Assembly (NCBI GenBank): GCA_051362555.1
Contig: CM120644.1
Span: forward strand, 15,646,534 to 15,710,533
Reading direction: 5' to 3'
DNA: 64,000 nt
DNA from: Lingula anatina
Lineage: Eukaryota > Animalia > Brachiopoda
The notes beneath the pieces are model-generated. The model saw nothing but the letters and a program-made list of their open reading frames with translations. It was not told the DNA's origin and did no database searches. The position numbers and the translations under genes were made by a program. Positions 12,041-53,824 of the stretch are shown in pieces (position 1 is the stretch's first letter; every line of letters begins with the position of its first letter).

Positions 12041-12070
12041 TAATAAAAGAAGGAAGCCGAACTCTCAGTC
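12041..12070 (+). promoter_or_regulatory. Putative TATA-like box and initiator of FReD copy B
   Basis: TAATAAAAG about 25 nt before TCAGTC, 24 nt upstream of the ATG; homologous CATATAAG...ACAGTC precedes copy C. Confidence 0.5.
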
Positions 12071-12093
12071 AATACGCTAAGCTCGTTAAGAAA

Positions 12094-21300: not shown

Positions 21301-21776
21301 AGCGCTAGTAAAAACATTGTTGTCAATATTGATCAAGCCGCGTGGATAAATGAAATAGTGGAACACGGAAGGTAAAAAAATCAATCGCCACTGAAACTGT
21401 CTCAACCGAATAATGTGCGCGAATCGATTCCTTCTTTGCCGTTAAATGTGTATCCTTTGGTCCCATAAACAAAGTTGGAATAGTGTCGAGCTTCCTTTTT
21501 TGACACGTTCGCTTAAAGAAACAGTGCAAATACTTCGGTCTTAGGTCTTCATATGTTTGTCCAAACGGCATTGAATATGCACAAGTACGCATAAACCCCA
21601 AAAGTACTAACTTTTGACAAAAGAAGACACAAGGTAGAACTAATAGTACCGTAAGGAACTGTTAATTTGACTCAAGCCCACCGAATATTAGTGGCGTGCC
21701 CGCGTTGTCACTTTAAAGGGAGGTCATATAAGAGGAAAGCGGAACTCACAGTCAATACGCTAAGCTGGTTAAGAAA

Positions 21777-22501
21777 ATGGTCCGGAGCAGCTTGAAACTT
21801 CGCTTCGTTTTCCTCTTGATATTAGCACCGACAATCTTCAGGACGCCATGGATAGACGCCCAGATAACTGAACAGCTCTTCAATACCACGGCGAACGCTT
21901 ACCTCCCACATTCTGTAATGAAGACGGTCCCAGCACGGAGTCCGTTGGAGTGTGTTACGCTCTGTAAAACCACCCCGGGATGCCTTTCTTGCAATTTCTA
22001 CGCCAGCAATACGTCAGGTAAGGTATTATGCCTATTCTTACTGTTCTTAATGCCCGTATCTGACTTTCATAAAGCAAGAAAAATGAAAAAAAATGAGATG
22101 ATAGACAAAGTATACCATCCATCATAAATGTATATTTATACAGTGTGTCCAGATGCATGGGATTTCAAGAGTGTAAGTTTTTTAACCTCCAGAACTCACG
22201 TCCTGTAAACATAGATTGTGGTAGCACCAAAGTACGAAACAGTTTTGAATAATCAGCTTTTTAACTTTTTAATCTAATTGTTTTCAAAAAAGATTTTGCA
22301 CCTATTTCTATTTATAACAATAAAATAATTCTTTTCATTTTTTTTTCAATGCAGGAATTTAAGGTGCAAAATATTGGAGAATTAGGACTTTCAAACTATT
22401 TTTAATTGTATTTTGAAATTATTTAAACCTTGATGATACTATGCGTGCATAATCCTTTTACTTTATTTCAAGAGCAAAGCAAAAAAAAAAAAAAATAATA
22501 A

Positions 22502-23206: not shown

Positions 23207-26200
23207 GTAAATTTCATTGATATTAAAATACCAAACGCGCAATGCACGCCTTTAAAAGTACTGACTTCATTCAACAGGATGTTATTTTGATCTTTTTACA
23301 GATAACTGCGATCTTAATTTCCGGTCCACTTCAAGCAGCATCAACTTGCATCTTCAAGTGATGGAAAACTCCACGTTCTATAGTGTAAGTATAAATGAGT
23401 ACAATTACGTACAGTTATTGACTTGCGGCAGGGGGAGGGTCACCTGGTAACTAGGTTCAAACAGAGACTAGGGTTTAATTGGTCGATTCTATTAGTGAGC
23501 AAATCCAAATACAGGTCTTATAATCGGATTAGACGTTTACTAACACTATCTGCATATATTTAGCACTAACATCCATATTAACCAAATAACCCACAAATTA
23601 ACTAGAAATACCAGAGCGGAAAATGTTAGTTCTAGGTATAGCTTTCTTGGTGCTAAATAATTCTACAGTGTGTTGGTTAATTCGTTGGTTTTGTGGTTAA
23701 TGTGGGTGTTAGTTATGAAAGATCGGCGGGTAGTGTTAGTAAACGCCTAATCCGTTTATAAGGCCTGAAATATCAATAGTAGTAACTGTTTTGTTACATG
23801 ACCAAGAAATTATAAGGGGATTGTTCGATGAAAAAAGTATAAACTTAAAACACGTTGGTCCCAAAAATTAATGTGAAAATCACCATCGTTATTTTAATGA
23901 CGTGTGTATGTGCCGTTATACATGTATATCCCCTGTTAAGGTATGTATACAGCTGTACCATGAGTGTAAAAATATCTGCCAATCCTTTAATGCAGACCCG
24001 CTTTGGAGCATAAAATCCATCCCAATTACCTTTTTATCCAAAAAGATCAATCGATGCCCCCTTATATGTGACATTAACCTTTTATCAGGGCAATCGATTA
24101 TATTTTAACGCGTGTGACTATGTGCATGGACATACAACAAAACATGCACCAAAAATATCAAGCTCTATTAATTCATTTTATTATATTTTTTAGGACGACA
24201 CTCGTGAGATTTGAACGGCTGATAAAATCAATGAATGATAAAAAATACAGTGGCTCAAACTGACGGAAAGACTCCCAAACAACAACGACCAATAAAACAT
24301 GGGTTTCTTTACCTTTATGAACATTTCCGATGGGAGTTCTACAGGAATCCTTGAGGGATTCTAGATTCAGACGTCCTATAGGGTTTCTATTTAGGACACC
24401 ACTGGATGTCCTATAAGACCCTATAGCATGTTGGCCAATTTCCTATAGACTCCTATAGGACCCTATACGACGTCCTATAAGACACTATAGGATGTTGGCC
24501 AATTTCCTGTAGACTCCTATAGGACCCTATACGACGTCCTATAAGGCACTATAGGATGTTGGCCAATTTCCTATAGACTCCTATAAGACCCTATAAGACG
24601 TCCTATAAGACACTATAGGATGTTGGCCAATTTCCTGTAGACTCCTATAGGACCCTATACGACGTCCTATAAGACACTATAGGATGTTGGCCAATTTCCT
24701 GTAGACTCCTATAGGACCCTATACGACGTCCTATAAGACACTATAGGATGTTGGCCAATTTCCTGTAGACTCTTATAGGACCCTATACGACGTCCTATAA
24801 GGCACTATAGGATGTTGGCCAATTTCCTATAGACTCCTATAAGACCCTATAAGACGTCCTATAAGACACTATAGGATATTGGCCAATTTCCTATAGACTC
24901 CTATAAGACCCTATAAGACGTCCTATAAGACACTATAGGATGTTGGCCAATTTCCTGTAGACTCCTATAGGACCCTATAAGACGTCCTATAAGACACTAT
25001 AGGATGTTGGCCAATTTCCTGTAGGACATCCTATTCTGGTGGGGCCCTGTTGGAAGCTTATGGGTGATTGTCAAGGCCATTTTGCTGCTCGCTGCATTCT
25101 TTGTTAAATACGTAAATAATCTGTTCAGTAGTGCAATTGGTATTTTTTTTTCCTGCGGGTTGTTTTTATTAAAATCTATTATTGGTGGCAAGCCATTGAA
25201 TTCACATCTGTTGATCAACGTCGACGGATAGCATATGTTAGTTTATAATTAAAATCGATCCTATTCTATTCAATCATTCCGGATTTGACCGTACGGAAAG
25301 GGTGGGGTCTATCATCAACATCATCATCATCATCATCATTATCATCATCATTATTATTATTATTATTATTATTATTACGAATGCGTTTTAATGATCAAAA
25401 TTAATGGAACTTGCATGTAAACTTGATGCCTTATACATTGAGAACTATATTAAATCAATCGATCCACTTTGAGAGGTCCGAAAATGTGCTCCAAGGGAAG
25501 GGGTCTCACTGCTAGTTTTCCACAAGTTTGCTTTGTCTCGTCTAAGATCTAACATATATATATATATGAAAAATTATATTGGCCGTGTTGGGCGCGGGGG
25601 CTACGTTTAGGTGATTCGTAGATATTATAGCCAAGGTTTTTACTTGTCAGTCTTTGGAAGCTAAGATCTAATAAACGGATATTAGAACTAAGCTGGAAGT
25701 TGACGGGTCCAGTTGAGTAGGCCGTCTGTAATGGGTCTTACATCGATTGGTCTCCACTACTTCCTTCTATAATAAAGATATTTTAAGAGTTATTGTCTTC
25801 GGGGAAAGGAACAAATTATATGTAAACATTTTCTTTATTCTATTGCAGTTATATGACCCTCGTGACTGCAATGATATAGGTAAGTGCGTTTCATTATATT
25901 GTTTTGGATCTAATGGCTTTATTTGTGAAATAAATAATACAATAATTATGAAGAGATTAAACAAACCAGCGGCAAACATACTTAAAGAACACCGTCACTT
26001 TTTTTTTTTTTTTTTTTGAGGTGTGGGGGCTCTTTAATTATGTTCTTCGCCGTTTCACTCGCTTATTTGCAGAAATGAAATTGTTCAAATTTTTGTTTTT
26101 TTTTGTTTAGACACAAAACGAAAAGATGGCCTTGCAAGTTGCTTTCGTTTGTCGCCATAATTGTATAAATACATATGAAATGCGTTTCTTGGTGAGACCA

Positions 26201-27488
26201 TTAATTTACTTTTTAATAATAATTCCATTGCATATTCTGCATAATCGCCATATAAGGTTGTGTCTGGCGCATTTACTCTCAAAATCACGTTTGAGACATT
26301 TTTTCTTAATTCATCAGAAGTCAACGGGCTGTATACCGTGGATATCGCAGGATTTGGCAAGAAAGTCGTATACTGTGACAACGGATGGCTCGTTGTTATT
26401 AGGAGATATGACAACTCGTTTGATTTTCACCGAAACTGGGCCTCGTACAGGGACGGTTTTGGTGACCCGAATGACCAGTTTTGGCTGGGAAACGATGCTC
26501 TCCATGCGTTGACCAATCAAGGGAACTATTCCATGCAGTTTGACGTGAAGTCCTGCAATGGTAACTATTACTTCGTCAAATGGAGATTGTTCCGCATTAA
26601 CAACGAGGCTGCAAATTACGCCATTACCGACATTATTGTTGATTCGTACAATACTTCGACGAATTACCGTTTGGGGGAAACCCTAGGATGGAGATTTGGA
26701 ACGACTGATAATCCAGTGGCCTCTTGTCCTCAAAATCACGGTACGTTCTTTGTCGACCGGGCGAAAGGGAAAGGGGGCGGGGTCGGAGGGATCGAGGGAG
26801 AATAAAGATAAAAATCAAATAGGCGCAAATACATGTAGGAAATAGGAAAATCTTACGATGCTTTGTAGGATCCATGGATGGGAATGTTTCTTGTATTTTT
26901 TCATGATTTGCACGTTGTAATGTTATGTTTCTAAGGCGTGAGAAACTTCACTTCTCCAGTATTTGCATTAGATTTCCTGCCATTTTGAGATGTTATAATT
27001 TTATTGATAGCATGTTACACGTTGAATATTACCATTTAAAGTAAGACGAGGCTGCGATTTTCATGAAATGCTCCGTTTTAGTCATACATGTATCTTCAAC
27101 AAGGAAATATTATTATTGATCTTCCAATTTTTTTAATAGACAGAAATCACGTAGGGGGGTTGCAATGGTATTTTATCACAGAATAGTTTACACGACATCT
27201 TGGAAAGTTAAGACATATGCACTTTACAAAATTAATAAATAAATGATAAATGAAAGCAATAAATAAATAAATAAAAAGAAAACAATGTGGACTGAAAACA
27301 ACTCTCTTTCCATTTCAGGCGGCGGGTGGTGGTTCGAAAGTTGCACGCGCTGGCACTTGACCGGATTTTATCCTGTGTCCTGTAGCACTGGCGCCTCTGG
27401 GATGAAGCTCGCCGCCATAACTGGAAACAACTGCGACAACGGGTGCATGCTTAAGGCCGGCACCATGAAGATCAGGCGTAACCCTTAA
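21777..27488 (+). CDS. Secreted PAN/Apple + FReD protein, copy C
   Basis: Exons 21777-22017, 23302-23384, 25849-25879, 26318-26740 and 27319-27488. Same exon structure as B, open frame, GGWWFESC motif, ends MKIRRNP*. Confidence 0.9.
23512..23767. mobile_element. MITE with TIRs of about 37 bp
   Basis: CAGGTCTTATAATCGGATTAGACGTTTACTAACACTA and TAGTGTTAGTAAACGCCTAATCCGTTTATAAGGCCTG. Confidence 0.8.
24400..25030. repeat. 64-bp minisatellite, about 10 copies, in intron 2 of FReD copy C
   Basis: CTATAGGATGTTGGCCAATTTCC recurs at 24421, 24485, 24549 and onward to 24997 (period 64); no unique spacers. Confidence 0.95.
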
Positions 27489-30982: not shown

Positions 30983-30989
30983 TATAAAA
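30983..30989 (+). promoter_or_regulatory. TATA box of the PAN-M15 gene
   Basis: TATAAAA 78 nt upstream of ATG 31061; the paralog has TATAAATA 79 nt upstream of its ATG. Confidence 0.6.
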
Positions 30990-31060: not shown

Positions 31061-32929
31061 ATGAAATCCATCTTCGTCACAATTTTGATATTGGGTCTTG
31101 CAGCCGTTAATGTCAATGGTAAAGTATATTTTTTAATATGATAAGCTTTATGGTATGTTGAATTGAAGATATGCTTATAGAATTGTTGGTATTAAGTTTA
31201 AAGGAATACAATGTTAGAATGTGCGTTAGATCTTTGCATAGGAAGTAAAAATAAAATAATTAATTTTTAAATAATTCTCCATGACATTTCAGCAGTATTT
31301 CTTTAAACACCAATTAAAGCATGGTATATCAAAAACCTTAGACAAAGTGCCGATGTATAATCCCGTTTAAAACTCTTAATTTCGAACCCCACATTTTTTT
31401 TAATTGTATTTTTTTTTCAACTTTTTGACAAACCTCCAAGAGTAAGGGAAACGTTTCCATGAAAATCAATTCTATTTTCTGATGGTCAAAGGCCCATTGT
31501 GTGAGAAAATATTCTGTGGAAACCCTTTAATTGTTTTAAATAAAATTTTTTAATGGTTTTAATTGTAATAAATAACTGTATCTTATGTGTACACTTGACA
31601 AATTCATGAGAGGAAAAGACAACATGTCAGGAGAATGTTACAGTCTACACCTACAAGCACATGCATTTATTAGACGCTGCAATAATATTATTTTTTGAAA
31701 GTAAAATGCCATTTCAAATAACCGTACACGCGATTCCAGTATTAAACGCACACGACAACATGCATTTTCAGAATTCTCAGAGGCTCAATTATATCAACCA
31801 AATGCATAGTAGGCTTTCTTTTTAAAAACAAAGTAGATTTTTCCCCAACAATTGGCATCAATTTTGTCTGTTTCTTGCTTTTAGGAATATGTCGGATGAC
31901 CCGGCGTGCAAATGCATTCTACAGCAAAGGACGCGACATTGATAGCTTCATATCAGGTTCTGAAAGAAAATGTTCCGACGCATGCGCAACTAACCGTTTG
32001 TGTGTTGCTGCCACCTATCGAACTTCTGACCGCCGGTGTTGGCGACACAGCACCTTGAGGAGAACTGGCTCAGGAAGAGGATGGGTTGCTTTGAAGAAGG
32101 ACGCAAGTTGCGTCAGTAAGTAACGCGGGAAGTTTTTTTCTTTCTTCAATGCTTTTCTTTTGAAGAAAAATTGCCTCAATGATGTCACCCTAATATCAAC
32201 TTTTCATGTTCAAAAATTTTTAGAACTGATGGCTGGTTTGGGATGTTCTATGCTCAATTATTCAAACAAAATCTCCAATTAAAAACCATATACAGGTATG
32301 CACTGGGTCATAGTCGAGATTCGTTACGATAATAAAACATTAGATCTTTCACAGTGTATCAATGACCAGCTCTTGTTAAACTTGAAACAGTGAGTATTTA
32401 TTTTATTTTCACCATCAATATGACTTTTCCATAGCTCCCACACAGACCCAACCTAAATGTATACCTGTTACAGTATAACAATTTTGTGCTTGCAGAGTCG
32501 CTCAGTGGGACAGTAAAATACGGGTACCAAAAGGTGGACAGCGTGGCACTTAAGCAGAAGCTCCAAGAGATCGCAAACTTTTTCAAAACCACGGTGACCG
32601 TCACGAGTGGAAGACGCAGTGGTTTTGATCCCTATGTAAGAGACATTATTTGTACATTGAAATCGTTTGTGTCTACATTAATACAACAACAGAAACTTAT
32701 TCATATGAAATATACTAGTATATATACAATTTACATGATGGCCTTGCCCTTAATGTAATCAATTTCGCACCAATGTCTTCGATAAAGTCATAATTAGCAT
32801 TAGCCACGGCATTTCAGCAATAATGTTGAAGTACATGTCAGGAAACAAGTGGCGGTCGATAACAATTCTTAAAATTATTCATAATATTTATTGGCACCAA
32901 AGCCATAGGCCTACTCCAGACCCAGTTAA

Positions 32930-32972
<43 letters not shown>

Positions 32973-33243
32973 TCAGCATAGGATAGGTCAAGCAGCAGAC
33001 ATCTTGGTGAAGGGAGTTGGAACTAAAAAGGCATGGGATCGCCTCAGAACAAGTGGCATTCTGGACAAGGAGTATTACGTCATGTACCACGCACCGGGGT
33101 CAAGGTCGTGCTCTACGGGCACGCACATTCACATAGCCCGTTACAACAAGGAATGGAATTCTGGCAAAAATACGTGCTGGATAATTGAGGGCACGACCCG
33201 TTCCAACAAATGCCTGTCGTATAAACAGCACAAATGTCTGTGA
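31061..33243 (+). CDS. Secreted PAN/Apple + peptidase M15-like (Hedgehog/DD-peptidase, LAS fold) Zn-metallopeptidase
   Basis: Exons 31061-31118 (signal MKSIFVTILILGLAAVNVN), 31885-32115 (PAN-like CSDACATNRLCVAATY...CW), 32496-32635 (...VTVTSGRRSGFDPY) and 32977-33243 (HRIGQAADI...STGTHIHIARY). Phases 1,1,0 are consistent; AATAAA at 33361. Confidence 0.8.
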
Positions 33244-35492
33244 GAAGGTGCTTGACCAGTTCCATTCACATTAAAGAGGGACCTCCTCCCTTTGCTAATT
33301 TTGCCACAGATTTCATCAATTCACATTGCTTTGATGTACATTTAGAAAAAATGCATCGGGAATAAAATAATGTGAACTGTATACTTGCCATTTTGTGCGT
33401 TCTTTTTTGTGAACAGCTCTATAAAATGTTGACCAGCGATTGCGATTAACTTTACTCTAAACTTCATCCACAAATCTCCATATTAAACGGCCTTGAACAT
33501 GCCTGTCTCTACCAAGAATACGTTCTGGGAAATCTATGCGATTCGTCTGCCAGTTATTTACCTTCTCGGCCACCGTTCAATTTTGGGCTATACATCATAC
33601 AGTCCAGTGGTTTTAACAAGAATTTAACTTTTCACTTTATCAACAGATATATAAATGAAAAGAATATTTGAAGAAATATGAAAATCAATAAATTAATGAA
33701 AAGACAAATCGAAGTAAATGCGAATTAACTACCCCAGTGAATAAGAGATTGATATGCACCAAAATCTGGATTTATGTCTGCTAAAATATACTCTTCATGC
33801 GCATTTACACATAATTCTCCTATTTCAACTATGTTTTATCTTTGAATAAATATATAGTTGCTTTAACTATTGCTTTCAACATTAGTAGAAGTCAGATCAT
33901 TGCATTTAATTGCCTAATAAGATATTTGGTCAGTATGGCATGCATTTGAAATTTATTTTAAAAAATGATCATAGTCTTTAGAAATGTGGCCAATAGTTTG
34001 AGTAGCAGCCCCGTATACACCAGAGAAAAAAAATAAATGAGGAATAATAATAATAATAATAATAATATGAATCTCTCCAGCTCATAGATATTTTTCTGGA
34101 TATTTTTTTCTGTGTCAGTTGCTTCCTGCAGTTAAGTCACACAGCACCTTTCGAATACCTGTATGTGTTCTGTTCCAAGTATGACCGACACGCACGCTCG
34201 TGTCTCGACAATGGACGTCGATTGTGCAACGAGTACAACAATTTTCAAAATTTTCAAATTTTGCTCAATTCAGCCTCTAATATGCCTCCAAAATTGCAAC
34301 AGAAAGAAGCTTAGAGAGCAGAAAAGAAGGGAAGAGGAAGAAGAAAGACGGGGAAAACAGGAGGTAAAACTAACGTACGCCGTCAGTACATGTACGTCAT
34401 CATTAGCGTGTGAGGCAAGTGCGAAGCAAAAGTGACGCAAAAGGGAACTACTTTCGCCGTGCGTCGCATTCTCTTCATAAGTGGGGAGTGCGTGCAAGGT
34501 ACGCAGGTATCAAAACAAACTCAAGAAATGAGTACAGCTTCCACCACCACCACACCTTGCAATAAGCGTCCCTGCTTCAAAGGACATCTCACGTGACCCC
34601 TACGACTCGCAAGGCAGACTTTTACCTTTCCATTGAAAATTTTCTTCTTCTTCTACGAACTCCACGGCCTCCACTGCACCCAAAATTTGTAGGGGACGTA
34701 CGGTCCTTAAATCTGTGCGTCTGGTTGTGACCGAGGCTTAATCTAGGATTAAGCAAGTACACGTACACTTGGCTGAAGGGCGGGTAAGGAAGGGGGGAGG
34801 GGTGGTGGTGGTTGGTGGATGTAGGGGGGGGGGGTCGAGTCAGCTGAACCAAGACCTCCAACGCAATTCCCCTACGGATATTCTTGTCAATAGCACAAGT
34901 GTTGGGGGGGGGGGGGGGGGCAAGTGTGGGTGGGCTGGTTGCGGTGGGGCGGCGGGGCGTGTGTGTGTGGGGTTGTTGAAAACCTAAGGTGAGGTGCCAG
35001 AGGTCAATGGGTGCAGAACTGAAGGCACCTTGAGGTAGCTTGTACTTACCGCTGAACATTCAATTTAATTTGCGATCAACTAAATAAATGTCATTCTTTA
35101 ATAGGCATGTTATGTATGTCACAGGGTTTTTGGATTCGTTACCCCATAAAAAGTGCTAATGGATAACGTTGCGGTGAACCGAATGTGATCAGAGAAAATG
35201 CCAAACAAGTAGCGGCATGCCAATACATCGATAATCTAAACCATTTAACTATTTCAATTATGTATTGGTTTTAGAGAATCTATAAAATGATACCTTAAAA
35301 TATGAAACCGCTGTTAGAGATCACTATATTAACATCAAAATGGCAGGCGTTATACCCATTTGGTCCACATTAATATCCTCTGCTCCTTTTTTATTTGGGT
35401 TTTCGGATCAAGAGGACAGCTTTTTGTCGAAATTGGTCAGTGTGTACTTATTAATGGACATGTCACTTGTTTAATTTCTAAAGATCGATGTG

Positions 35493-35500
35493 TATAAATA
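35493..35500 (+). promoter_or_regulatory. TATA box of the second M15-like gene
   Basis: TATAAATA upstream of ATG 35572. Confidence 0.6.
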
Positions 35501-35571
35501 CAGTTCTGTCATTCGAAACGTCACTATCCTATTTTGACCAGCAGCAAGCAGACGACTTTTGAAACGGGACA

Positions 35572-35815
35572 ATGAAAGTAGCAATTCTAATTTTCCTGTG
35601 TCTTGGTCTTGGGGCCCAAAGTTACTATTTTCGTAAGTAGACGCTATTCGTTACTTACATGTATAACAGTACATACACACATTTTTTACTTAGAATTTGT
35701 GAAAGTGAAAGTTTTTTTTTTTTTTAAACATCTTTATTCTCAAGAGGGTTACATATTGATACAGTATAAATAAAGGTGGCAATTCGCCTAGGCATTATAT
35801 GCTCACCTTTGAAAT

Positions 35816-35866
<51 letters not shown>

Positions 35867-38800
35867 TTCAAGAAAAAGACGGTGACGAGGACATGAATGG
35901 CATTAGAGGGGAGTGAGGGACAGGGCATGGGGGAAAGGTAATTATGGGGGGGGCAATGGGCCATCAGGAGAGAGTGGTAGGCGCCAGAACAGAAATGGAA
36001 GAAGATTCAGACATTTTTGATTAAGAAATCTGACACTATTTCGAAAATCTTGTCGTTTTGTCCAGATGTTAGTGTTTTATGGCCATGTAGGAAGAGGGAT
36101 ATCTTATCTAGTTGGGTTCTGAAATATGCATAAGTTACACCAAGTATATCTTCAACAGATTCGTAGAGATCACGATATTTCCTCTGTTTCAGTGGGCATT
36201 GAAAGAAAAAATGTCGGATAGTTTCGGGTTTCCCACATAAACAGTTGGGAGAAGCCATAGCTGTCCAGTTGTGGTCATATAGTTGGGCTCTAAATAACAA
36301 ATCGACTCGGGCCTTATTTAGGATTTTTTCATTTTGTCTCGGAAGCTTCAGATGGGTAGTGGACATTGTTGCTGGGAAGGTTTCATTTCTAAGGTTATAC
36401 TTAAGGGAGGATGCAGAAGGAAGATTTTTTTGAGTGGTGTTTAGTTCATCCCAGCTTGTCATCAAAAAGTGTTCGGGACCTTTGTATGTGAATTTAGAGG
36501 GAATTATGTAGTCTCGTTTAGATGTTGTCCGTAGAGGTAGCATGTATTTATTTCTAAACGGAGTGAAATAGGTAGAGACATAGGAAGGTGCTAGTTGATT
36601 GTGGATATTGAACATGATTTTTTTCGCGTGGTTTCTTCGACAATGATTTGGTTCAATAATTACACAGTGAAAGTAGATGCATTTTCATCGTTATTTGTTT
36701 CAATTTTATATTTTTGGTAATTCACTTACTGTATAATGTATAAACCTATACGTGTATATGGCAGGTCTAAGCCGTTTGGCTTTTAAATGAAAGAAATAAA
36801 AGTAAGTTATAATTTGCAGATAATCATAAATACGCCGGAGTAGGTTTTTTAAAACGTGTTTATTGATAGTAATTGTTGTTGTGAATTCGGTATTACATGA
36901 ATAAGGCACTCTTTAGCGATAAAGCAGCGGCGGATGCAAAGCCTTCCCCCCCCCCTCCCCCCCCTCCCCCCCCCCCCCCCGTTGGCGTTGGAAAAAATGG
37001 TATTTTAGAAGGTGAAAGGTGCCTTTGGTATAGTTTAGAACTATAATATTCAGCTAGTCAAAATTCTAATTGGAATAGGGGGCAATTGGTGTGATTTTTT
37101 TTCAGAAATTGAAGGGGGAGGGGGGAGTCAGGACCCCCCCTGACCCCACCTCTAAATCCACCACTGTAAAGGAGAATCTACTAAAATCTCTGTATAATAT
37201 ACTGTATAATTTACTGGAAAGAGCATTGAGTATTTTATTGAGAACTTTAGATACTAGCTGCTGTGCCGTCGAAAAATAAAAAACACCTTGTATAAAAGAA
37301 TGAGAATTAATGGAAATTGACTACAAAGTGGTAGAAAGTGGTCGGTACATGTAGACTTAACTTAATCTGTACATTCCCAGTCAAAAACGTGCATCGCGCC
37401 TTCATACGGGTACATAAAACATGCAGACCATTGTCCCTTCTATCTGCACCCGCCTACCCCTAATTAACGTCTGCGCACTACACGATGCGCACATCCGGTG
37501 TATTAACAATAACGTGCACGTTTGACACCCAGGTCCACCCCAGGGTATAGTGAACTATGGGAACCAGGTGATCTACAGCAACGCGCTCAGGTACAAACTC
37601 CAGGAGATCGCCAACTTTTTCGGGTCCGTCACTGTTACCAGCGGGTTGCGTCAAGGCGGAGACCCCCACGTGAGTAGACGACAGTTGACATAATGTAAGA
37701 AAAGATATAATGATACTGGTACGTACTAGTAAGTTCTGACCCCCGATGTGACAATGGTTGCTTTAAGCAAACCCAAAATAATGCTTATAAGTATTTGATA
37801 TTTTCACTGTGTTTGTCAAAAAAGCGGTTTGTATAGATATAAGCTTGGGCAAATCTGCCAGTGTCAACAGTGTTCGTGGCGGAGCTGGTCATGTCGCCAA
37901 GGTGATAATGCAACACTGCTCACTTTGTTAGGATAATTGCAGACTCAGCTAAAATAAATGATTAATAATTAAAAAGGATTATAATGCAAAATACAGCTGT
38001 ATGAGACTTTCCCCAAGCTCTGTGTGTGTGTGTGTGTGTGTGCGCGCGCTTTAAAATGAATGTATCATACTCGCCACAAATGATAGATAGTCATATAAAA
38101 CACAGCATCCCACGTACGTGATACCCTCTCGACCAGTGGGTACTCGTGTCTGGTAAATGAGCTGCAACAGATAGTACTTGACGCTCTCCTAAGTTACTTG
38201 GACGCCCGTGACAAAAAGATATTATTCCAATGTGAACAATTCATGTGTAAAATGTTAAATATATTATACGATATGCTCATTTTTTTACCATAATGACATG
38301 AATTTTTTTTCGTCTATTTCCTCTTGTCAGTTTGAAAATTGTTTTACGTTAAACTGAGTAAGGAGATTTTGTTCAGCATTCTAAAGGTGTAATGACTGTC
38401 TAAAGAAACAAATAGAACATAGTCAAATAAACAAATAAATGAAAAAATGAAATAAAACTTAGAGATGAGTAATAGACTATAACATATTAACTCCTACATG
38501 TAATTAGAAAAGTCACTGGTTTAGCGAACACGTACGTTTTGATATATGTCGAAAAGGAAGGCGGAAAACGGTGTTGACATTGGAATTGGCATAACTATTT
38601 TTACTCGAAATAAAGCTTTTTTCGCCATTGGGTAACATAGATTTGATACAGTGCCGCCGGAATGTCCCCTTACCAAATGGCCGTATGGTTTCCCAACCCT
38701 GCCCCATATGGTCGAACAATAGAGGCCGTATGATAATTACAGGGTAGGGGAATCCCCAAGCAATCCTTATCGGACACCCAAATTAGTCGGTTCAACGAAC

Positions 38801-41076
38801 ACGGTCTGCCCCTTCTTAATTGCCTCACTTAAGGTTTCTATTATAGCTGATGCAAAGAGACTGCTATCGACACGAGCAAACAATACCGGGTTATGTATCA
38901 ACTGCAACAGAAGACTCGAGTAAAGGCAAGTCGAATATTAGAACAAAACTCTGAAGAACAAATCAGGCTTAGTTTTAAAACACGTATAACAATTTTATTT
39001 GATGATAGTAAGTCACGATCAACAAAAGCGTAGTTAAAATGGAAAATTATAAATAGCTAATACATCAAATAAATATCAATGTCTCATTACCTTTATTACA
39101 TGTGTTGCTAGTTTAGTAGCCTGATGCACGACCTTCTCTTCGTCGTATTTCTATAACACATAGTAAATGGCTTGTCGCGACACTTTATGGTCTTCATTTT
39201 CCATTTGTGCGGTTATGTTTTTAATTCGCACCCCTTGTTCTCGGAGGGCGATGATACGCAGACGCACGTAATCACTAAGAGGCTTCTTGGAATTGTGATG
39301 ATTTGGAAAATCTGAGTGTCGATTTATACCGTTCACTTGGCAGGTGACACGAAGGCACAGAAATCAGTGACATAAACTTGTCATATTATACAAAATACTT
39401 ATTGGCCATTTAGGAAGACCAGATACACAAACAATCCTGTTGACACGTGTCAGTTGATTTAGAATTATGTGCAATTGATTAGTTTGGATTGAAGAGCGTC
39501 ATCGCAATGTTAACATTAATTTTAGACGACGCGTGTCACACAGTAGTGATTATGTAATAATCAGGGCTTAATCACTGTGTTAACCCAGCATGAATAAAGC
39601 TAACCTGAACTGATTGTTAATTAATGTGAAATGACACGTGCCAACCAGTGAAGTTAGCCCGAGAGATTGTAATCCAGCTTTATAAATTAATTTCTTTTGA
39701 TGCTTTTTGTCCTACATAATCAAGGAATCAGTCTTTCGGCCGGCCAGTACCCGTCGCCTTGTCAAATAAAGAAATATTCGAAATTCGACAACGGGCCAGT
39801 TCCCCAGGCAACTTTTGCGTTCAGTTGATGGGAAGGTTGTTTACGATTGATGAACGAATACGAAAGGACAGAAATGTTACGGGTGTAGATGGGAGAGATC
39901 CTACATGCAAATATAGACAGAACTATATTAAAGATATGGCTAACAAAATATTTATCACTGAAACAACTGACAAGTCTTTTTGGAAAAAATGCATTTCGTC
40001 TATGAACAAAGCTAATAGAAATATAAAGACATACTATAAAAATAAATTTCAATCTTGTTAATAATATATATATAGCAAAGACAGTTTGAAGCCTAATAAA
40101 TACAGTGTATTACATGTTCAAGTACGAGTAGTGTTTTATTTGATCTTTAAGAAATTCATAAATTCATTTATTAAACTCTATGTAAATTCAATCAATTCAT
40201 AGCTATAATGTACACGAAAATTGCTGTCATCACCGAATCTTTTTGGTAAAGCAACTTTTAAAAATCACTGTTGGCAAGTTCTTATACTTAAAATCTCCGA
40301 ATCAGAGTAGAGTGATCAGAGTAGAGTGAAGCCACCGCGCATTAAAGGTCAATTAACGCTTGGACGAACACTTAATTGCGACCACGCTCACCTTCGATCT
40401 TTATCTCAGCGAGCTAGGGTTAGGCTCTTTTGTTAGCAGAAAGTTTGTCACGATAATTGCACGACGGGCAGGGTATGGAACTATTGTTAACAGAAACCAA
40501 ACAGCGTATGGATGACAATGTTATTTCCATAGTTACCGAGCCAGGCCGTCCGTACAACCCGCAGCGACCCGGAGGGTAAGTAAGGGGACATTCCGGCGGC
40601 ACTGTACCTAACTTCCGGAACAACCTTTAAACATTTCCCCTTTACTTTAACACCCGGTCATAAACCACCCATCTCTTTAAAGGAAAAATACATTTTTGTT
40701 CCAGTTATTGCGATGTATACCGTTTTTTGTTTGCAATTTTCTCTAGTACTGAACAAATTATCTATATATAAGTATTTTCAGTATACTGTAGCTCAGATTA
40801 AGCCTCCTTTCATTTTAGCACGCAGTTGGTCAGGCGGCAGACATCGTTGTACCTGGCCTCGATCCCAAAGTTGTGTATGATCGCCTCAGAATGAGCGGCA
40901 TTATTAGCACGGATTACATCGTCATGTATCACGCGCCAGGAGTGCGTCCGTGCTCTACCGGAACTCATCTTCACATTGCACGCTACCAAAAGGAAATGTT
41001 CACCGGTCGAGCCACGTGTTGGGTTATCGAAGGGACGAACATCTTTAACAGATGCCCGTCTCGGCCACCTTGTTAA
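35572..41076 (+). CDS. Secreted peptidase M15-like Zn-metallopeptidase (no PAN domain), paralog of 31061-33243
   Basis: Exons 35572-35632 (signal MKVAILIFLCLGLGAQSYYF), 37533-37669 (KLQEIANFFGSVTVTSGLRQGGDPH) and 40819-41076 (HAVGQAADI...STGTHLHIARY...CWVIEGT). Same intron position as the paralog; AATAAA at 41195. Confidence 0.8.
35713..36665 (-). mobile_element. 5'-truncated non-LTR retrotransposon (LINE 3' end) in intron 1
   Basis: Open 202-aa ORF2 C-terminus (36007-36615) with a CLCG..ET..HFFFQCP knuckle. AATAAA and poly(A) tail on the - strand (35712-35737). Target-site duplication AGTGAAAGT at 35704-35712 and 36666-36674. Confidence 0.85.
36925..37166. mobile_element. hAT-like MITE with a 5-bp TSD (TAAAG)
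   Basis: TAAAG|CAGCGGCGGATG...AAATCCACCACTG|TAAAG. Confidence 0.75.
39151..39336 (-). pseudogene. Transposase N-terminal HTH fragment
   Basis: LSDYVRLRIIALREQG...I...VSRQAIYYVL resembles the Tc1/IS630 N-terminal HTH; truncated by a stop codon. Confidence 0.6.
39759..40061 (+). CDS. BEN-domain-like ORF or exon inside the TIR element
   Basis: SSPGNFCVQLMGRLFTIDER...NVTGVDGR...R..YIK...WKKCISSMNKANR fits the BEN-domain pattern as I recall it. Possible acceptor at about 39724; AATAAA at 40095. Confidence 0.6.
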   Translation: MSNKEIFEIRQRASSPGNFCVQLMGRLFTIDERIRKDRNVTGVDGRDPTCKYRQNYIKDMANKIFITETTDKSFWKKCISSMNKANRNIKTYYKNKFQSC

Positions 41077-41262
41077 TATAATGTTAGGAGATCTACCGGT
41101 ACCTTTGTTCTGATGCGCATGCGAGGCAACATAACAGGTCATTTTCTGTGATTGCCTTTCGGATTGTGATTTCTAGCAGATATACGGCAACGCTAATAAA
41201 ATTGTTTTAAATGTGAAGACGCACGAGTAGTTTTTCACAAACATTATTTTCGTTTGTTTGTT

Positions 41263-43153: not shown

Positions 43154-46100
43154 ATGAAAAACGTACAGTTTGTATCGAGATTTGTAGCCGCAGCACTGAC
43201 AGCGGCAGTTTGTGCAGTATGGGTAAGTAGTGAAACTGGCTAAACTTTCCGGTTAATAATTGTTTACTGTGTATGCACCAACAAAATAATGGATACCTGT
43301 TTTTAACGTTTTTAATATCTAGCTTGTACAGAAAGGACTAGGTTAAATAGTGCCATTTCAATTTTTGAAACTGCTTGATTCAAACATACTTTTGGGAAAT
43401 ATTTCAGCTTTTAGATGTGTCACACGCAGCGACGATGGATGAACTAATCAAGATCGCAGCAAATAAAAGTAAATATAAACTTTTTATAATTTCCTTTGTT
43501 CCTTACCAAGGGGCACGTAAAATTTCAAAACCTGCAATATGAGAAAAGTGTATTCTCAATCCACATTTATAACCTGGTCAAACATAAGTTGACTTTTTTC
43601 TATTGTACTTATACTATGATTCAGTGTTTAATCCGCGATAAATTCATCGTCATCCAGCTGAAAAAAAGAACACGGAAAAATAATTATTCGAACCAGAAAA
43701 AAAACTTTCTCGATGGTGAATTTTTATTTTCGTTTTCACATTTTACTAGGTAGAGCACTGGAGACTATACAAGATGACAGCGTTGTTCTACGTGAACTGG
43801 ATATATTGATGCTTAAAGAAGATTTTCAAGCTCTCGAAAGAGCCAGGGAGGAGGAGTTTGGGTAAGCAAGGTCGTCATATTTTAGGACAATTAGAATTTG
43901 ATAAGGCGCATATAAAAGTAAACCAAAGAAGCGATTTTTATGTTTCCTTGTCAATAGCACATTTACGGCCTAAGAATGGGATGTCAAATTCATTTTAACT
44001 GAAATGATACGTTTTTTAAAACATTAAAATGCTATATTTACGACACGTTTGCTTCTTGATTATTTCTCAATTATTTCCTTTTTATATAAAATAAAAATAA
44101 GAACAGTGGCATAGTTATAAGAGCATGCACAAATATTATATGTAGTGATAGTGGTTTGTTTCTAAAGAGAGTAAATATGTTTTTTTACTTGACTATAATA
44201 ATCAAAACGTCATATCTCAAGAACAAAAAGCGAGTTAATTTCTAAAATAAAGGTGAAGATGTATTAAGACAAATGCCCTTACAGTATGTCATCGATTGAC
44301 GAAACATATTTTAAATTTTATCTGAAGATTGCTTGACAAGGACGGTAATTATGAAGGGGAACGTACCCGCAAGAAAAGGAAAGGAGTCAGAGATTTAGGA
44401 CGCCGCTGGCCAAATGGTGTAGTTCCTTACACCATATCATCGGTGATGTGTAAGTACAAGTTGTATGAAAAAAAGTTAAAATAATTGAAATCTAAAAAAA
44501 CACTCGCAATAGATAAATAAGTGTATAAGCATATAAAAAATACATAATAAATACATAATAAATAAGTATATAAATAAATACATAAATTATTTAAAAACAG
44601 ACGAGCGCGTCTGTGGATGCACGCACATATATTTAGAAACGGGGGGGGGGGGGTTCAAGATTTTGACATAGGTGGGGTGGGGGTCTGTTGGTGGGTCATA
44701 AGAATAGTAAAAGAAGACGTAGTCAATTTTAACATAATCCCTAGGACACAGGAATGAACAAGTTTGTTGTTTTTTTTTTTTTTTTTTTTTGCTTTGTTTC
44801 TGATCTCATGCTGTTTTTCTTGGACGGAAAAGAGAAAGTGGGATACTGTGTAACCCCTATTGTAAAAACTGAAGGGGGTGACAGTTGTTCTTGCCCCCCC
44901 CCCTTACCCACGACCTGGGTGCTCCATTACATTTGAATGTACAATAAACAACGCCACACCAAACAAAACCGTGCATTGAAAAAATCATGCAAAGAAATAT
45001 TTATTTTCTGATCCATGTTTCCAGCTGCCTCAGATCGCAGAGCCATACAGCAGACCTTGGATGACTGGAACAAATACACATGTATCCAATTCAGGCCACG
45101 AAGAAATGAAAGGAATTACATTCACTTGGAAAATGGCAGCGGGTAAGAAGGAAGAAGTTTCTCAGATAGAATTTATCTTCTTGTTAATTTTTAATTTGTA
45201 TTATAAATGAAATTGAAAAATGAAAGACTTTCGAGAATAGATAAGACGGTTATTTTTATTAAAATCATATACCTGATTTAAGTACTTAAACAAAAATATA
45301 TCAATGTCATGAATGTTCTCAAAGGCAATACATATTCAAATTTATATTTTAGTTTGGATAAATAAATTTGTTTTTGGTTCTTATTAAATAAAAAAAACAT
45401 ATTTTACAGGTTTGTATTTCTAACAAGTGATTGTTACATAGAAGGTCATGAAAAGTCAAGAATTCTATTTGATTCACATTATAATCACGTCTTTTGATTT
45501 AATTATCAAACAGACTTGTATAGGGCATGTTGGATTTCCTCTTATTTGAATATGCTTCGTAAGCTTTTGTGTTTTCTTTTCTAGGTGTTCATCTTTCGTC
45601 GGAATGTTAGGACGGGGACGCCAACTGGTTACCTTGGGACAAGGATGCAGATCTGTAAGTTCAGTCGTTATGAAGCCTCGTATTTATCCAGTTATTCCCC
45701 AGTAACATGCCTCATTCATATGCCAATTTAAATTGTGGTAAATATTGCTTGTTGTAGTTGGAAAACTGGTGGAAATCAATAGAAATGTACTCGTTATTTT
45801 GTCAGTAGCATTAGATAGAAAACGATACTTTATCAGCCAATGTTTTTAAGTATAAGATTATTACATAATGCATTATGCCTTTTAGAAAGGAATCATCATC
45901 CATGAATTGGGACACGCGATAGGGTTCAACCACGAGCAGACGAGATATGACCGCGATAACTATGTCACCATCGTCAGAGGAAACATTCCAGGACATCTTT
46001 ATTACAACTTCGAAAAATATCCGCAGTCTGTTACCAATACGCATGGCGTACCGTACGATTACGACAGCGTCATGCATTACGGCCAATACGTAAGTTCAGT

Positions 46101-48167
46101 TTTTTTTTATGTTTCGTCTTACTTCTAATTTTTCTTACTCCTACCTTTTCGGGTTTTTTTTACTTATTCTTTTGGTCCTTCTTTTCATTGTTGACCTTAG
46201 ACCTTCCAGAATATAGTTAACCTACAAGAAAATCTCATATTCTCAGGCATTTTCTACCAACGGGCGTCCAACTATCATAACCAAAGATAAGTCCAAGCAG
46301 AATACAATTGGAAACAGCTTCGGGCTCAGCTTCGGCGATGTCAAATTGGCAAACGCCATGTACAGTTGCGATCGTGAGTTTCCTCGATTTATTTTACGTT
46401 TCGTGCATTTTAAAAGTCATTTGCGACAAGTAGTAATTATACAGTCTCATTTTTTAGTGTGAAGTTAAGTATAATTTGTAGATTTTATTACCCTTCTACA
46501 GGCCCGTGGCGAGCAAAGTTCAAGTTTGTGTGACCATTGAAAATAATATTGTCAGTTTGATGTTATAGTTTAATAATTATTTGAAAACCAATTTGGTCTC
46601 AAGACCCGTTGGCCTCTGCTTCCTGCTCTTGTGATGTGACTCTCTCGCTGACTCTGACGCCTATAAAGTAAGGTACACTTTTTCTCTCAACTGAACATGC
46701 ATTTTATGTCTCAGGTGGCTGCACGAACAAACCTAGATGCCCCTCCCCGGGATTCGTGGACAAGAATTGCCGCTGTATGTGCCCAGGAACTAACGGGGGT
46801 GTTCCTGTGCAACCCTGCAGTACCGGGGGTGGCACTGGGGGCGGAACTGGAGGCGGCACCGGGGGAGGAACCGGGGGAGGTACTGGCGGTGGCACTGGAG
46901 GCGGAACCGGGGGCGGAAATAGTAGGTTGAATGCATCTGTGTTTGATTTTAATACGTATCTCTTTTTTCTTGAGAATTGCGTTTTAAACGCTGGTGCTCA
47001 CTTCTATCTCACTCGAAAAACTGTCACAAGAAATGAGTGATACAGCTTTGGTCGATTTGAACTTGAACTTGATTGTTACATTTATCTGTTACAGACAACT
47101 GTCGGGATAACAACAACAATTGTGCAGGCTGGGCGTCAAGAGGCGAGTGTCAACGTAACCCTGGATACATGCACGTTTACTGTAAAGAGTCATGTCGTTT
47201 GTGTAACGGAGGAGGAGGAGGTATGGGGTCTTTTGTTTTGTTACCCTTATTTTTAGGAAGGACTTTATTCTCTCCCCCAGCATAAAATAGTTTATATTGA
47301 GTTTACCTTTATCTTCGGCATATAACCTTCTATTTGAAAAACATATATCTTTTATGAAGAATTTAGTTAGTGAATCCAAATAAATAAATAGAAATGAAAT
47401 CATGAATTTTAGTTAAACCAAAATGAAAAATATTATAAATGCGATTTTTTTCCCGCGAGCAGCAACATGTACCTCGTGGCAGTATTCTTATTCTTCACAG
47501 CCGTCATCTTCTAATATTTTGCAAATCTAGATCAATGCCTGTCGCGAATTTGTTGATGTCTTAATTGACCTTTCCTTGTGTAACCCCAAATATATCTTTA
47601 TTTCGTCGGAATTTCTGTACCTAGTCTAAATGACCAAAATATCTTTACTACTTTTTTATCACTTTTCCAGGAAGTAGCAGTTGTGTTGACTACGACACAT
47701 ATTGTGCCACTTGGGCAGCACGTGGCGAGTGCTCTCGTAACCCCCGGTATATGATCCCTTACTGTCCAAAATCCTGCAATAGATGCTCTGGAGGTACAGT
47801 CACACATAACTTCTTTGGTTTGGTTTTAAGCTGAAGTGAAATAGTTGTACTGTTTATAAAGTATTCTTTTATTAATCTATAACAGCGTTACTTCAAAATG
47901 ATTTTTATATAGATTTCAGATAATTCTTAAATATTGGTCGTCACTGAAGCATTATAAAACGTAACTTGGTATACCTGACTCTGTTTACTTTTGTCATTAT
48001 CAATATATTTATCATTGATATTTAATTTCCTTTATTTGATATTTTTTCCAGCTCCCTGCGTTGACAAGAACGTTCTCTGCGATCAATGGTCTAAGAGGGG
48101 AGAGTGCGCCAAGAACCCGAATTACATGCTTGTTAATTGTCAACGTGCGTGTGGCGAGTGCTCGTAA
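43154..48167 (+). CDS. Astacin-family (M12A) zinc metalloprotease with a Cys-rich segment, (TGGG)n linker and three ShK domains
   Basis: 12 exons: 43154-43222, 43408-43468, 43750-43861, 44328-44449, 45025-45142, 45585-45654, 45886-46089, 46247-46373, 46715-46921, 47095-47220, 47671-47793 and 48052-48167. Motifs: pro-domain ELDI, furin site [31 protein letters not shown], Met-turn SVMHY, and three CxD...C..W...GEC..NP.YM...C...C..C repeats. Confidence 0.95.
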
Positions 48168-49507: not shown

Positions 49508-50977
49508 TTATTGATATTCTATTACTTTCCAGGCGTCCTCTTTTCCTGCAGCCATCTTCATGAGCTTCACGGTCATTTCAGCGTATCTGGTCGCGTTCGA
49601 TTCCGTCACCCTATTTGTGCCGTAGGCCAAATTGTAGCAGAAGCAACCACGGAATTTCTGTAGGTAATGAAAAAATGGTGCTTGCGCCTTGTGTATAGCA
49701 GATGATGAAACCAGTCTCGTGGCGTGAATCAAGTCCTCCTTTGTCTCCGGAGGCCACAGTCTGTCGCAGTCGCCGAGGTTAGAGGTACAGATATCAGATG
49801 TACACCCTCGATTTGATACCATTCGTTTTACTCTTCTATCGCTAAAGAGGTGATTAGAGATTTTTGTATCTCTTATGACGTCGCCATTGTTGAGACTGGC
49901 ATGGATAACTTGAGTCGCACGTTTGACAAGTTCCCAAAACCCAGCATATGTAGTGGCTGTTGGAGTTATCAATGGGACGTCAAGAGGTATGGCCAAACTT
50001 CCAGTGGCATTGTTTAATTCCGGGGAGAGAAAACGTCGCATGTTAACCGCATGAGTGGAGACAATCTCCAAAACTCGCGGGGACTGCCCTTCATTAATAA
50101 GCTTAGCCACGGCCATCGAGGCAGCAGCAAAAAGAACGCCTTGTACAGTAACTCCATGATCCTTACATTTCACTATGATTATTTTGGTTTCTGGAACTGA
50201 AAATTGAACCGCCACTATTTTCGTGCAGCCCTCACCTGGTATTGAAACTTTTAGAAACCGCTTTGAAAATAAACTTTCGGTGGGGAATACATCTTTATAT
50301 TTCACCTTTGCAACTTGGAAATAGTCACGCCAACCGACTGCCATTTTATCCTTTGGCAGGAATTCTTCTAAAGAGTGCAGACATTTCTTGGCATCGGCAT
50401 CTTCGCGGGGCTTGCCTGCCAAAAAAGCGTTTAGTATACCGATCAGTTTCTTTGACATGATTAAAGCTGATATCCCATCCAATATAGAATGGTGTACCCC
50501 AAACACCACTGCACTGATAAACCAGCTGTCTCCTGCTATCGGAGAACACACCTCTTCCCCCGAATCGATTTGCGTGTTATCACAAGGCATGCGCAGAATC
50601 TTCACTCTCCAGAGTGGACCATTGGCTGTGTCAAACATCAAGCACATCATATGCTCGTGGACTTTCTTCCAGTCGTTGTATGATGCTATGTCCAGAACCT
50701 CGAAGTCTGTTCGAGGTTCGTCCATGTACTTGAAATACCTCTTGCCGTCTTGCCAAACAATAGCCAGGCAAAGTTGCGGAATGATTTCTTGCAGACGCTT
50801 GAGACCAAGGCCCCATACGTCATAGGATAAGAACTGTTTTGACTTAACCCACGTTGTAAATGCTGTAATACTGACACCCGCGTCATGCATAACGGCAAAC
50901 TTGTTTTCAGTGCTTCCTAGTGGGCGAAGAACTTCCGTGGTGCGCAACGATGGGTTTGCCTTAAAATTGTCAGCCAT
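49508..50977 (-). CDS. HHxxxDG CoA-dependent acyltransferase / stand-alone condensation-like protein, paralog 1
   Basis: Single long coding exon with LRPLGSTE, GPLWRV, VHHSILDG, CKDHGVTVQG and TSNLG. Likely start is ATG 50977 (MADNF), just after an AG acceptor; the ORF-track start at 51073 is probably intronic. Confidence 0.85.
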   Translation of the reverse strand: MADNFKANPSLRTTEVLRPLGSTENKFAVMHDAGVSITAFTTWVKSKQFLSYDVWGLGLKRLQEIIPQLCLAIVWQDGKRYFKYMDEPRTDFEVLDIASYNDWKKVHEHMMCLMFDTANGPLWRVKILRMPCDNTQIDSGEEVCSPIAGDSWFISAVVFGVHHSILDGISALIMSKKLIGILNAFLAGKPREDADAKKCLHSLEEFLPKDKMAVGWRDYFQVAKVKYKDVFPTESLFSKRFLKVSIPGEGCTKIVAVQFSVPETKIIIVKCKDHGVTVQGVLFAAASMAVAKLINEGQSPRVLEIVSTHAVNMRRFLSPELNNATGSLAIPLDVPLITPTATTYAGFWELVKRATQVIHASLNNGDVIRDTKISNHLFSDRRVKRMVSNRGCTSDICTSNLGDCDRLWPPETKEDLIHATRLVSSSAIHKAQAPFFHYLQKFRGCFCYNLAYGTNRVTESNATRYAEMTVKLMKMAAGKEDAWKVIEYQ

Positions 50978-53524: not shown

Positions 53525-53824
53525 TATAATCCATATAATCCTAAAATTGCAATATCATACTAATAATGTCCATATACTAATAAGTCCATATACCAGTCGC
53601 ATTGTCTTTCACTAATCTACTCCTAAAATGGCAAAATATTGATAATTATAATAATTAATAGAGTATATGCATGAATAAATTCATATACGATTGGTATTCT
53701 TTTTTCTCATAATACAGGTTCGATATGTCGGCTGTGTGCAGTGTACTGTTCTGTGAGCTCATAAATATTTTATTCGTTTAATTTCTAAGACTTAATTATT
53801 TATATGGCATATTAGTCTCACAAT

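Follow-up and report, generated by a model that had tools for sequence, protein, structure and literature searches.

Two tandem Lingula anatina genes predicted to encode secreted M15-type zinc peptidases of probable bacterial origin

Described systems and the Lingula gene pair

Animals attack peptidoglycan with lysozymes and amidases, among them the domesticated Dae amidases. We have analyzed two tandem genes, G1 and G2, on the + strand of a 64,000-nucleotide stretch of the Lingula anatina genome (assembly GCA_051362555.1, contig CM120644.1, positions 15,646,534 to 15,710,533; hereafter the window). They would encode secreted zinc peptidases of the M15A type with the LAS fold, and we favor, with moderate confidence, the explanation that these enzymes act on bacterial peptidoglycan and derive from one ancient transfer from a bacterium to an early lophotrochozoan. 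A real and expressed gene family, very likely of bacterial origin, joins here the known domesticated cell-wall hydrolases.

Animal peptidases directed at stem peptides or cross-links have been proposed sparsely, as rusticalin-like proteins, and the accessible parts of the two papers concerned leave their function to experiment (PMC6339383, PMC7379824). According to the same parts, these proteins occur in tunicates, amphioxus, corals, and placozoans and, like the Lingula pair, are intron-containing animal proteins of clan MD, for which a horizontal origin and an antibacterial role were proposed. They differ in being Peptidase_M15_4 / L-Ala-D-Glu peptidase-like (Ply500) proteins, whereas the G1/G2 family matches Peptidase_M15_3. 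M15_4 was not listed for any of the seven animal domains that we scanned, and no rusticalin-like protein was found among the phmmer and profile matches of the family. The cysteine-rich repeats of rusticalin-like proteins are common to three Lingula paralogs and are absent from G1, which carries a PAN domain, and from G2, which has no accessory domain.

M15 domains have also been reported in Trichoplax and fungi, and the supplement of the same 2020 paper includes three Lingula members (A0A1S3ITZ8, A0A1S3IU05, and A0A1S3KGF4) under IPR009045, its main text containing no occurrence of Lingula, brachiopod, or Hedgehog (PMC7379824, accessible parts). The Trichoplax protein B3SC14 (PF08291) did not turn up in our family searches. 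The concept of M15-type horizontal transfer candidates in animals was thus already published, contrary to the newness implied by the original prediction for this DNA. New elements are a clade spanning three phyla, its probable donor subfamily, the shuffling of targeting domains, and a sister group fused to lysozyme. No paper discussing this M15 family was found in the literature searched (subscription journals lay outside its coverage, and PMC7379824 was the only supplement included).

The Streptomyces albus Zn DD-peptidase (1LBU; M15A, Peptidase_M15_3) shares with the animal proteins the LAS fold and the order Arg, Hx6D, HxH. It is only 15-19% identical to them, and they have introns, conserved cysteines, H104, and a PAN or no accessory domain versus its PG_binding_1 domain. 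The pneumococcal VldE, an L-Ala-D-Glu endopeptidase that remodels the bacterial wall, binds zinc through Hx6D and the last His of HxH, and its alanine mutants are inactive (PMC11667670, accessible part). Also a LAS/clan MD protein with Hx6D and HxH, it was the best Protein Data Bank (PDB) sequence match (E 0.33), at ~23% identity; G1/G2 showed no sign of its four-zinc loop, which has extra acidic residues. Dae amidases and animal g-type lysozymes are likewise bacteria-derived cell-wall hydrolases with a patchy distribution in animals (for g-type, PMC11576321 and PMC12855814, accessible parts); their catalytic folds are unrelated, and the likeness is an analogy only.

Gene structure, expression, and zinc site

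G1 and G2 are virtually certain to be real genes. As originally predicted, both have GT-AG introns and open frames once spliced (Table 1), giving a product of 231 aa from four coding exons for G1 and one of 151 aa from three coding exons for G2. The first zinc His is directly preceded by a phase-0 intron in both genes, and this motif-splitting position is why single exons miss Pfam: none gave a peptidase Pfam match or a word-seeded homologue. The predicted layout of a signal peptide and a ~130-aa domain held for G2, and both proteins have a signal-like N-terminus, called from hydropathy alone (peaks of 2.96 in G1 and 3.19 in G2, at most 1.29 elsewhere in the proteins). G1, in turn, has an extra PAN-like exon supported by reads, whose PAN_4 match (E 2e-5, 25 bits) is under the 27-bit cut-off; the PAN_1 cut-off is passed by the paralogs P0002 and P0003. 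The predicted TATA boxes and poly(A) signals are present, with TATAAA 78-79 nt upstream of the ATG and AATAAA 118-119 nt past the stop in both genes, and are weak evidence by themselves because both hexamers are common in the region (17 and 26 copies, respectively, in 11.3 kb).

The G2 product differs from the L. anatina protein XP_013396719.1 at 3 of 151 positions (P0001 is the RefSeq model of the same product), and G1 differs at 3 positions from the last 231 residues of P0019, so that both are 98-99% identical to L. anatina records. The two catalytic domains are 60% identical to each other, with proportions of synonymous and nonsynonymous differences (pS 0.75, pN 0.27, over 130 codons) indicating purifying selection. 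The proteins end 36 (G1) and 33 (G2) residues past HxH, and G1 is strongly basic (isoelectric point 10.0). As a chance control, the exon-internal pattern Hx6D..HxH, which was written post hoc, occurred twice in the window and in none of 50 base shuffles.

We have mapped raw poly(A)-selected RNA reads, from runs under the same species label, to the window (X1, X4, X5, X7, X8, and X9). The joint between G1 exons 1 and 2 (31118/31885) was spanned by 22 reads in X7 and 2 in X9, and that between exons 2 and 3 by 20+4 reads in X9 and 1+8 in X7. The 32635/32977 junction, for which a transcript check had been proposed, was found via loose ends entering exon 4 (17 reads in X7, 8+6 in X8, and 6+26 in X9), with none listed behind 32635 in X5. 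G1 reads were essentially absent in X1 and few in X4. The junction reads were mostly 90-99% alike and comprised at least two variants, both with the His kept; they therefore represent alleles or close paralogs of G1 and need not be transcripts of G1 itself. Genes of the G1 type belong physically to the animal genome and are expressed as spliced transcripts. The second junction to be checked, 37669/40819 of G2, was not listed in the reads (exon depth ~1 in X7 and zero or close to it in the three other runs), and G2 splicing rests on homology and on the RefSeq model of the same product.

Inside G2 intron 2, positions 38646-39283 reached a depth of ~190 in X1, with first mates all + and many loose ends leading elsewhere. 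This segment has no stop-to-stop frame longer than 89 aa and no Rfam match (there was none in the window). Its reads are probably antisense to G2 and probably come from a transcribed repeat of another locus.

Bacterial contamination or a mis-spliced artefact would draw on the bacterial similarity and nothing more, and we give it a negligible probability. The motif is split by spliceosomal introns, the G1-type junctions are crossed by poly(A)-selected reads whose splicing refutes this reading, the neighbors are animal (fibrinogen-related domains, an astacin motif, and a Tc1-like transposase piece), and RefSeq paralogs lie on five scaffolds.

The putative active site comprises S134-G-R-R137, H144-x6-D151, H181, and H193-x-H195 in G1, and S57-G-L-R60, H67-x6-D74, H104, and H116-x-H118 in G2. 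The predicted zinc ligands, Hx6D and the second His of HxH (G1 H144/D151/H195, G2 H67/D74/H118), were invariant in 10/10 animal rows of the alignment. Together with S57, R60, H104, and H116, which were equally invariant in the animal rows, they were also invariant in all 37 rows of the bacterial subfamily described below, an invariance that is partly by construction, the loci having been fetched with motif patterns, with H104 and H116 outside the bacterial fetch patterns. Among the phage-type outgroup rows, H104 was present in 0/17 and H116 in 1/17. The Asp of S-G-D-R was invariant in the 37 bacterial rows, kept in five other animal rows, and replaced in the G1/G2 clade. G1 and G2 almost certainly carry an intact LAS zinc site, in line with what had been predicted.

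Peptidase_M15_3 was matched by five of the seven animal domains (Pfam scan, best E 8e-5), and the endolysin family phrog_894 by all seven (best E 1e-6). The gathering score of PF08291 is 23.2 bits, and the animal paralogs reached 13-21.8 bits versus 23.6-40 bits for the direct bacterial relatives. Membership of G1/G2 in M15_3 is thus transitive, via these relatives, and not by cut-off. The family profile aligned S-G-x-R and Hx6D to 1LBU, a match aided by the peptidoglycan (PG)-binding domain of the bacterial rows.

An AlphaFold2 model of P0001 (32-row alignment) had a predicted local distance difference test score (pLDDT) of 87.8; a single-sequence fold of a G1-like protein (pLDDT 33) gave no usable PAN-M15 model. 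The best Foldseek rows for P0001 were 1LBU (E 0.024, probability 0.90), VldE, and Hedgehog, which agreed with the LAS match expected from the original prediction. The top seven VIA rows were all LAS proteins: 1LBU (Z 7.9, root-mean-square deviation 3.3, 99 aligned), Hedgehog (7.8/7.7), VldE (7.2), and the T5 and Ply500 endolysins (5.7), with unrelated rows starting from Z 5.2. The modeled fold is that of LAS proteins; fold alone cannot separate M15A from Hedgehog, which also is a secreted animal protein, and sequence does. HH_signal was found in none of the seven animal domains (Pfam scan at E up to 10, with HMMER filtering discarding the majority of matches above 0.1), the four PDB sequence matches at E up to 10 included no Hedgehog chain, and no Hedgehog-named match appeared in the profile searches for the family. 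Both spliced products lack the Hint domain and the Cys-Gly-Pro-Gly motif of the mature Hedgehog N-terminus. The claim of no sequence relationship to Hedgehog was supported, even with tied fold scores.

Animal and bacterial relatives and the direction of transfer

The family searches were word-seeded, and the longer-protein search scored the best 7989 candidates. A phmmer search with the last exon of G2 against 1.84 billion representatives returned 14 matches. Seven were true homologues, named as proteins of Lingula anatina, Owenia fusiformis, and the chiton Liolophura sinensis; the other seven (P0006, P0007, P0009, and P0011-P0014) were rejected as multi-stretch repeat matches. In the protein searches, animal members were named from three species in three phyla only, plus two unnamed animal-type fragments (P0035 and P0036), which were closest to the animal rows. 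Lingula has ten RefSeq models of the family, one of them truncated, on five scaffolds, this copy number being taken from public protein records. The ESM Atlas gave leads only (0.85-0.90), in clusters with M15_3/M15_2 on 11-36% of members.

The M15 domain stands bare in G2 and is combined with one or two PAN domains in Lingula members including G1, with two cysteine-rich repeats in three Lingula models named "lysozyme 1," and with an SH3b-type domain in the Owenia member (bacterial SH3_3 above cut-off, E 2e-9). The chiton member has a region like the Owenia SH3b-type domain (BLAST E 8e-11). The similarity of P0035 stops exactly at the site of the motif-splitting intron of G1/G2, a break point suggesting that the other animal subclade may have this intron as well. 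Three cysteines (C111, C133, and C145) were present in 10/10 animal rows and in none of the 37 bacterial-subfamily rows. The introns, the signal-like N-terminus, the added cysteines, and the paralog expansion support that the family was domesticated.

A profile of the seven animal domains found 42 proteins at E up to 0.01. Eight are named animal proteins, 2 are the fragments, and the remaining 32 have neither an animal name nor animal-type cysteines (best E 1e-24). These 32 made up 14/20 of the near-length and 18/22 of the longer matches; PF08291 was present on 27 of them, and among the 18 longer proteins 17 had LysM or PG_binding domains. Identity to the best bacterial match was 50-54% for the less diverged animal paralogs and 35-38% for G1/G2, and HHalign gave a probability of 99.9 (E 1e-36). 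This bacterial subfamily is the nearest non-animal kin of the animal family, and the kinship is firm. The subfamily (P0021-P0054, loci L021-L034 and L056-L081) shares all seven motif residues with the animal proteins and falls in the same clade; it differs in its accessory domains and in having no introns. Its named or placed records are from Acidobacteriota (Pyrinomonadaceae and relatives), Planctomycetota, Chloroflexota, and Bdellovibrionales. It is rare (3/401 genomes in a phylum sample and 14/401 in the class of genome G002), the two counts having used different profiles and thresholds and the class sample including a record titled "Clostridia" (G004). In one Planctomycetota genome, the M15 domain lies mid-way in a 1768-aa open frame (L063, G003:C302). 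MepK was a weak match for a bacterial member (E 0.005).

For the phylogeny, window products replaced P0001 and P0019, and the fragments P0035, P0036, and P0018, the fused model P0017, and P0055-P0064 were left out. The first set was built after dropping 10 near-duplicates, with 14/22 subfamily loci and 17/41 weak loci as outgroup; for the second, 12 loci were added and 4 long outgroup rows, 7 bacterial rows, and P0003 were dropped. With the phage-type M15 outgroup, the animals formed one clade (98/88 in the first set and 99/94 in the second; 98/97 unrooted), which lay inside the bacterial subfamily in both rooted trees. Its sister group (94/92 and 93/91, not starred) consisted of multi-domain proteins and two stand-alone domains, one of them from Bdellovibrionales. 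Bacterial monophyly was recovered in 0% of 200 bootstrap trees.

The long proteins of the sister group had a goose-type (g-type) lysozyme domain in nine of ten cases and a short piece of it in the tenth. Nine (P0038, P0039, P0041, P0044, P0046, P0047, P0049, P0050, and P0052) combine a g-type lysozyme, a PG-binding region, and M15, usually with LysM. The domain of P0038 is animal-like and matched solved g-type lysozymes at E 1.5e-40. None of the 127 pattern matches in a GTDB scan was a relative of this group, none of the 12 added loci had a lysozyme domain, and one Bdellovibrionales record was the sole taxon placement in the sister group. These metagenomic fusions may extend the bacterial range of g-type lysozymes beyond myxobacteria. 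They bear on a debate over the direction of g-type lysozyme transfer, as two papers disagree on the direction for myxobacteria and the word "peptidase" is absent from their main texts (PMC11576321 and PMC12855814, accessible parts).

A bacterial origin of the family is highly probable. The nesting, and with it the direction from bacterium to animal as in the original prediction, is favored and not secured. This direction is the more economical one because three animal species stand against a deeper, multi-phylum bacterial group; one origin with many losses and later animal-to-animal movement are indistinguishable here. Several observations weigh against our reading as a whole. In the approximately unbiased (AU) test, bacterial monophyly had a borderline p 0.046 in the first set and p 0.33, that is not rejected, in the second. 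The alignment had just 133-136 columns, and the outgroup consisted of phage-type M15 only, lacking rows from Hedgehog, Trichoplax, fungi, and a broad range of cellular M15_3 proteins. PF08291 gave no match for the whole proteins P0001 and P0019. The fold scores tied 1LBU with Hedgehog and VldE, none reaching Z 8 or a Foldseek E of 0.001. G1 and G2 sit on a long branch (0.73-0.78) and have no known peptidoglycan-binding module, and no characterized member of the bacterial subfamily was found.

The AU result of the second set and the fold tie would also suit a history with no bacterium-to-animal transfer, in which an old eukaryotic or Hedge-related lineage was widely lost or the domain moved from animals to bacteria. 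The animal-like g-type lysozyme domain of the sister proteins points the same way, and one paper argues for transfer of g-type lysozyme domains from animals to myxobacteria (PMC12855814, accessible part). We consider this improbable, given the restriction of named animal members to three species versus the depth of the bacterial subfamily, the lack of HH_signal or any other Hedgehog sequence match, and the absence of bacterial monophyly from the bootstrap trees of either set. A phage link, also part of the original prediction, did not find support. Phages were rejected as donor: there was one weak tblastn match (E 0.07) among 50,697 phage records, and two IMG/VR scans each gave 20 loci from their candidate sets, none stronger than E 7e-7, of which those used fell in the outgroup.

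Returning to acquisition from bacteria, G1 and G2 proteins probably act on peptidoglycan. The main grounds for expecting this substrate are domain fusions, namely lysozyme, LysM, and PG-binding domains in the bacterial sisters and SH3b in the Owenia member; with no characterized protein found in the bacterial subfamily, the substrate rests on these domain neighbors. The targets would be stem peptides or cross-links. By analogy with 1LBU and VldE, Zn2+ would be held by H67/D74/H118 in G2 and H144/D151/H195 in G1, R60/R137 would bind the substrate carboxylate or the transition state, and H116/H193, possibly with the subfamily-specific H104/H181, would activate water. The Streptomyces albus enzyme also cuts D-Ala-meso-diaminopimelic acid (mDAP) cross-links. 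Tentatively, the bond cleaved by the animal enzymes would be D-Ala-D-amino-acid, either in D-Ala-mDAP cross-links or at D-Ala-D-Ala ends, the alternative being L,D bonds as in VldE and MepK.

After the transfer, the family would have gained the conserved cysteines (likely forming two disulfides), the signal peptide, and the introns, and targeting modules would have been fitted repeatedly. Owenia and the chiton would have received an SH3b-type module, Lingula paralogs either PAN or cysteine-rich repeats, and G2 none. One borrowed enzyme would thus have been equipped again and again with different modules. The basic G1 would suit anionic bacterial surfaces, and a likely role is the digestion or killing of bacteria at mucosal or gut surfaces, beside lysozymes. 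The family offers small (130-aa domain), soluble, and likely disulfide-stabilized candidates from three phyla with a traceable bacterial source, which makes the claim directly testable.

A bacterial origin could also have led to a non-lytic protein, which trims or binds peptidoglycan fragments (immune damping, sensing, or symbiont control), or, in the PAN clade, to a shift toward another substrate or signaling, as Hedgehog did with the same fold. The long branch of the window clade and its replaced S-G-D-R Asp would fit this, as would the best structural match being titled DD-peptidase/carboxypeptidase and PAN being a general protein- or glycan-binding module. Nevertheless, all 10 animal rows retain every predicted zinc ligand, the Arg, and the two extra His residues, the closest bacterial sisters show a lytic arrangement with lysozyme and LysM fusions, and the Owenia member has SH3b; we judge this alternative rather unlikely. 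More speculative still, and in our view doubtful, is an extension of the lytic reading in which an undescribed M15 subfamily, recognizable by its extra invariant His, was captured once, by an early lophotrochozoan, from a bacterial LysM/goose-type lysozyme/PG-binding/M15 protein. That would link this bacterial lineage to the disputed origin of animal g-type lysozymes, animals and these bacteria having exchanged both halves of a cell-wall-lysis kit, glycan cutter and cross-link cutter. The animal peptidases would then form an innate-immune or digestive enzyme class acting with lysozyme on DAP-type walls.

Coordinates and neighboring features

Table 1. Positions of the G1 and G2 features and of neighboring features in the window
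Feature	Position	Strand	Content and evidence
G1 TATA-like box	30983..30988	+	common hexamer, weak
G1 exon 1, coding sequence	31061..31118	+	predicted signal peptide; phase 1 end; hydropathy, RNA joint to 31885
G1 exon 2	31885..32115	+	PAN/Apple-like domain, phase 1-1 exon; PAN_4 match, RNA joints on both sides
G1 exon 3	32496..32635	+	predicted M15 domain, N-terminal half including S134-G-x-R137
G1 exon 4	32977..33243	+	H144 as first codon, D151, H181, H193, H195, four Cys, stop
G1 candidate poly(A) signal	33361..33366	+	AATAAA; read depth down to at most 0.36 in bin 33329-33675
G2 TATA-like box	35493..35498	+	common hexamer, weak
G2 exon 1, coding sequence	35572..35632	+	predicted signal peptide; phase 1 end; hydropathy
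G2 exon 2	37533..37669	+	predicted M15 domain, N-terminal half including S57-G-x-R60; product as RefSeq model P0001
G2 exon 3	40819..41076	+	H67 as first codon, D74, H104, H116, H118, four Cys, stop
G2 candidate poly(A) signal	41195..41200	+	AATAAA
Tandem genes with PAN-like exons	~2200-27500	+	PAN-like exons at ~2205-2490, 12034-12396, 21732-22127; fibrinogen-related domains at 7734-8261, 17179-17748, 26245-26805
Tandem duplication	2421-4917		1250 bp, 99.5% identity; possible assembly artefact or recent duplication
Tandem array	24392-25034		64-bp period; also matches its own reverse complement
Reverse-transcriptase-associated fragment	36007-36684	-	in G2 intron 1; zf-RVT E 0.0015
Metalloprotease-like exons	45900-47040	+	HExxHxxGxxH near 45901, SxMHY turn near 46054, then Cys-rich and Gly-Thr repeat exon
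Three uninterrupted open reading frames (~500 aa)	49508-51088, 52070-53554, ~62500-63990	-	PapA_C / AATase / condensation-type acyltransferase matches; 64-67% alike in DNA
Tc1/mariner-like element	54271-57377		535-bp inverted ends (96% alike), transposase fragment

The tandem genes upstream of G1 are probably lectin-like immune genes, and their PAN exons were not among the tblastn matches of the G1 PAN domain. Downstream of G2, the metalloprotease-like exons carry astacin-type motifs and would be part of an astacin-like metalloprotease. The three acyltransferase frames are tandem and apparently intronless, with matches of bacterial or fungal type, and possibly represent a second horizontally acquired family.

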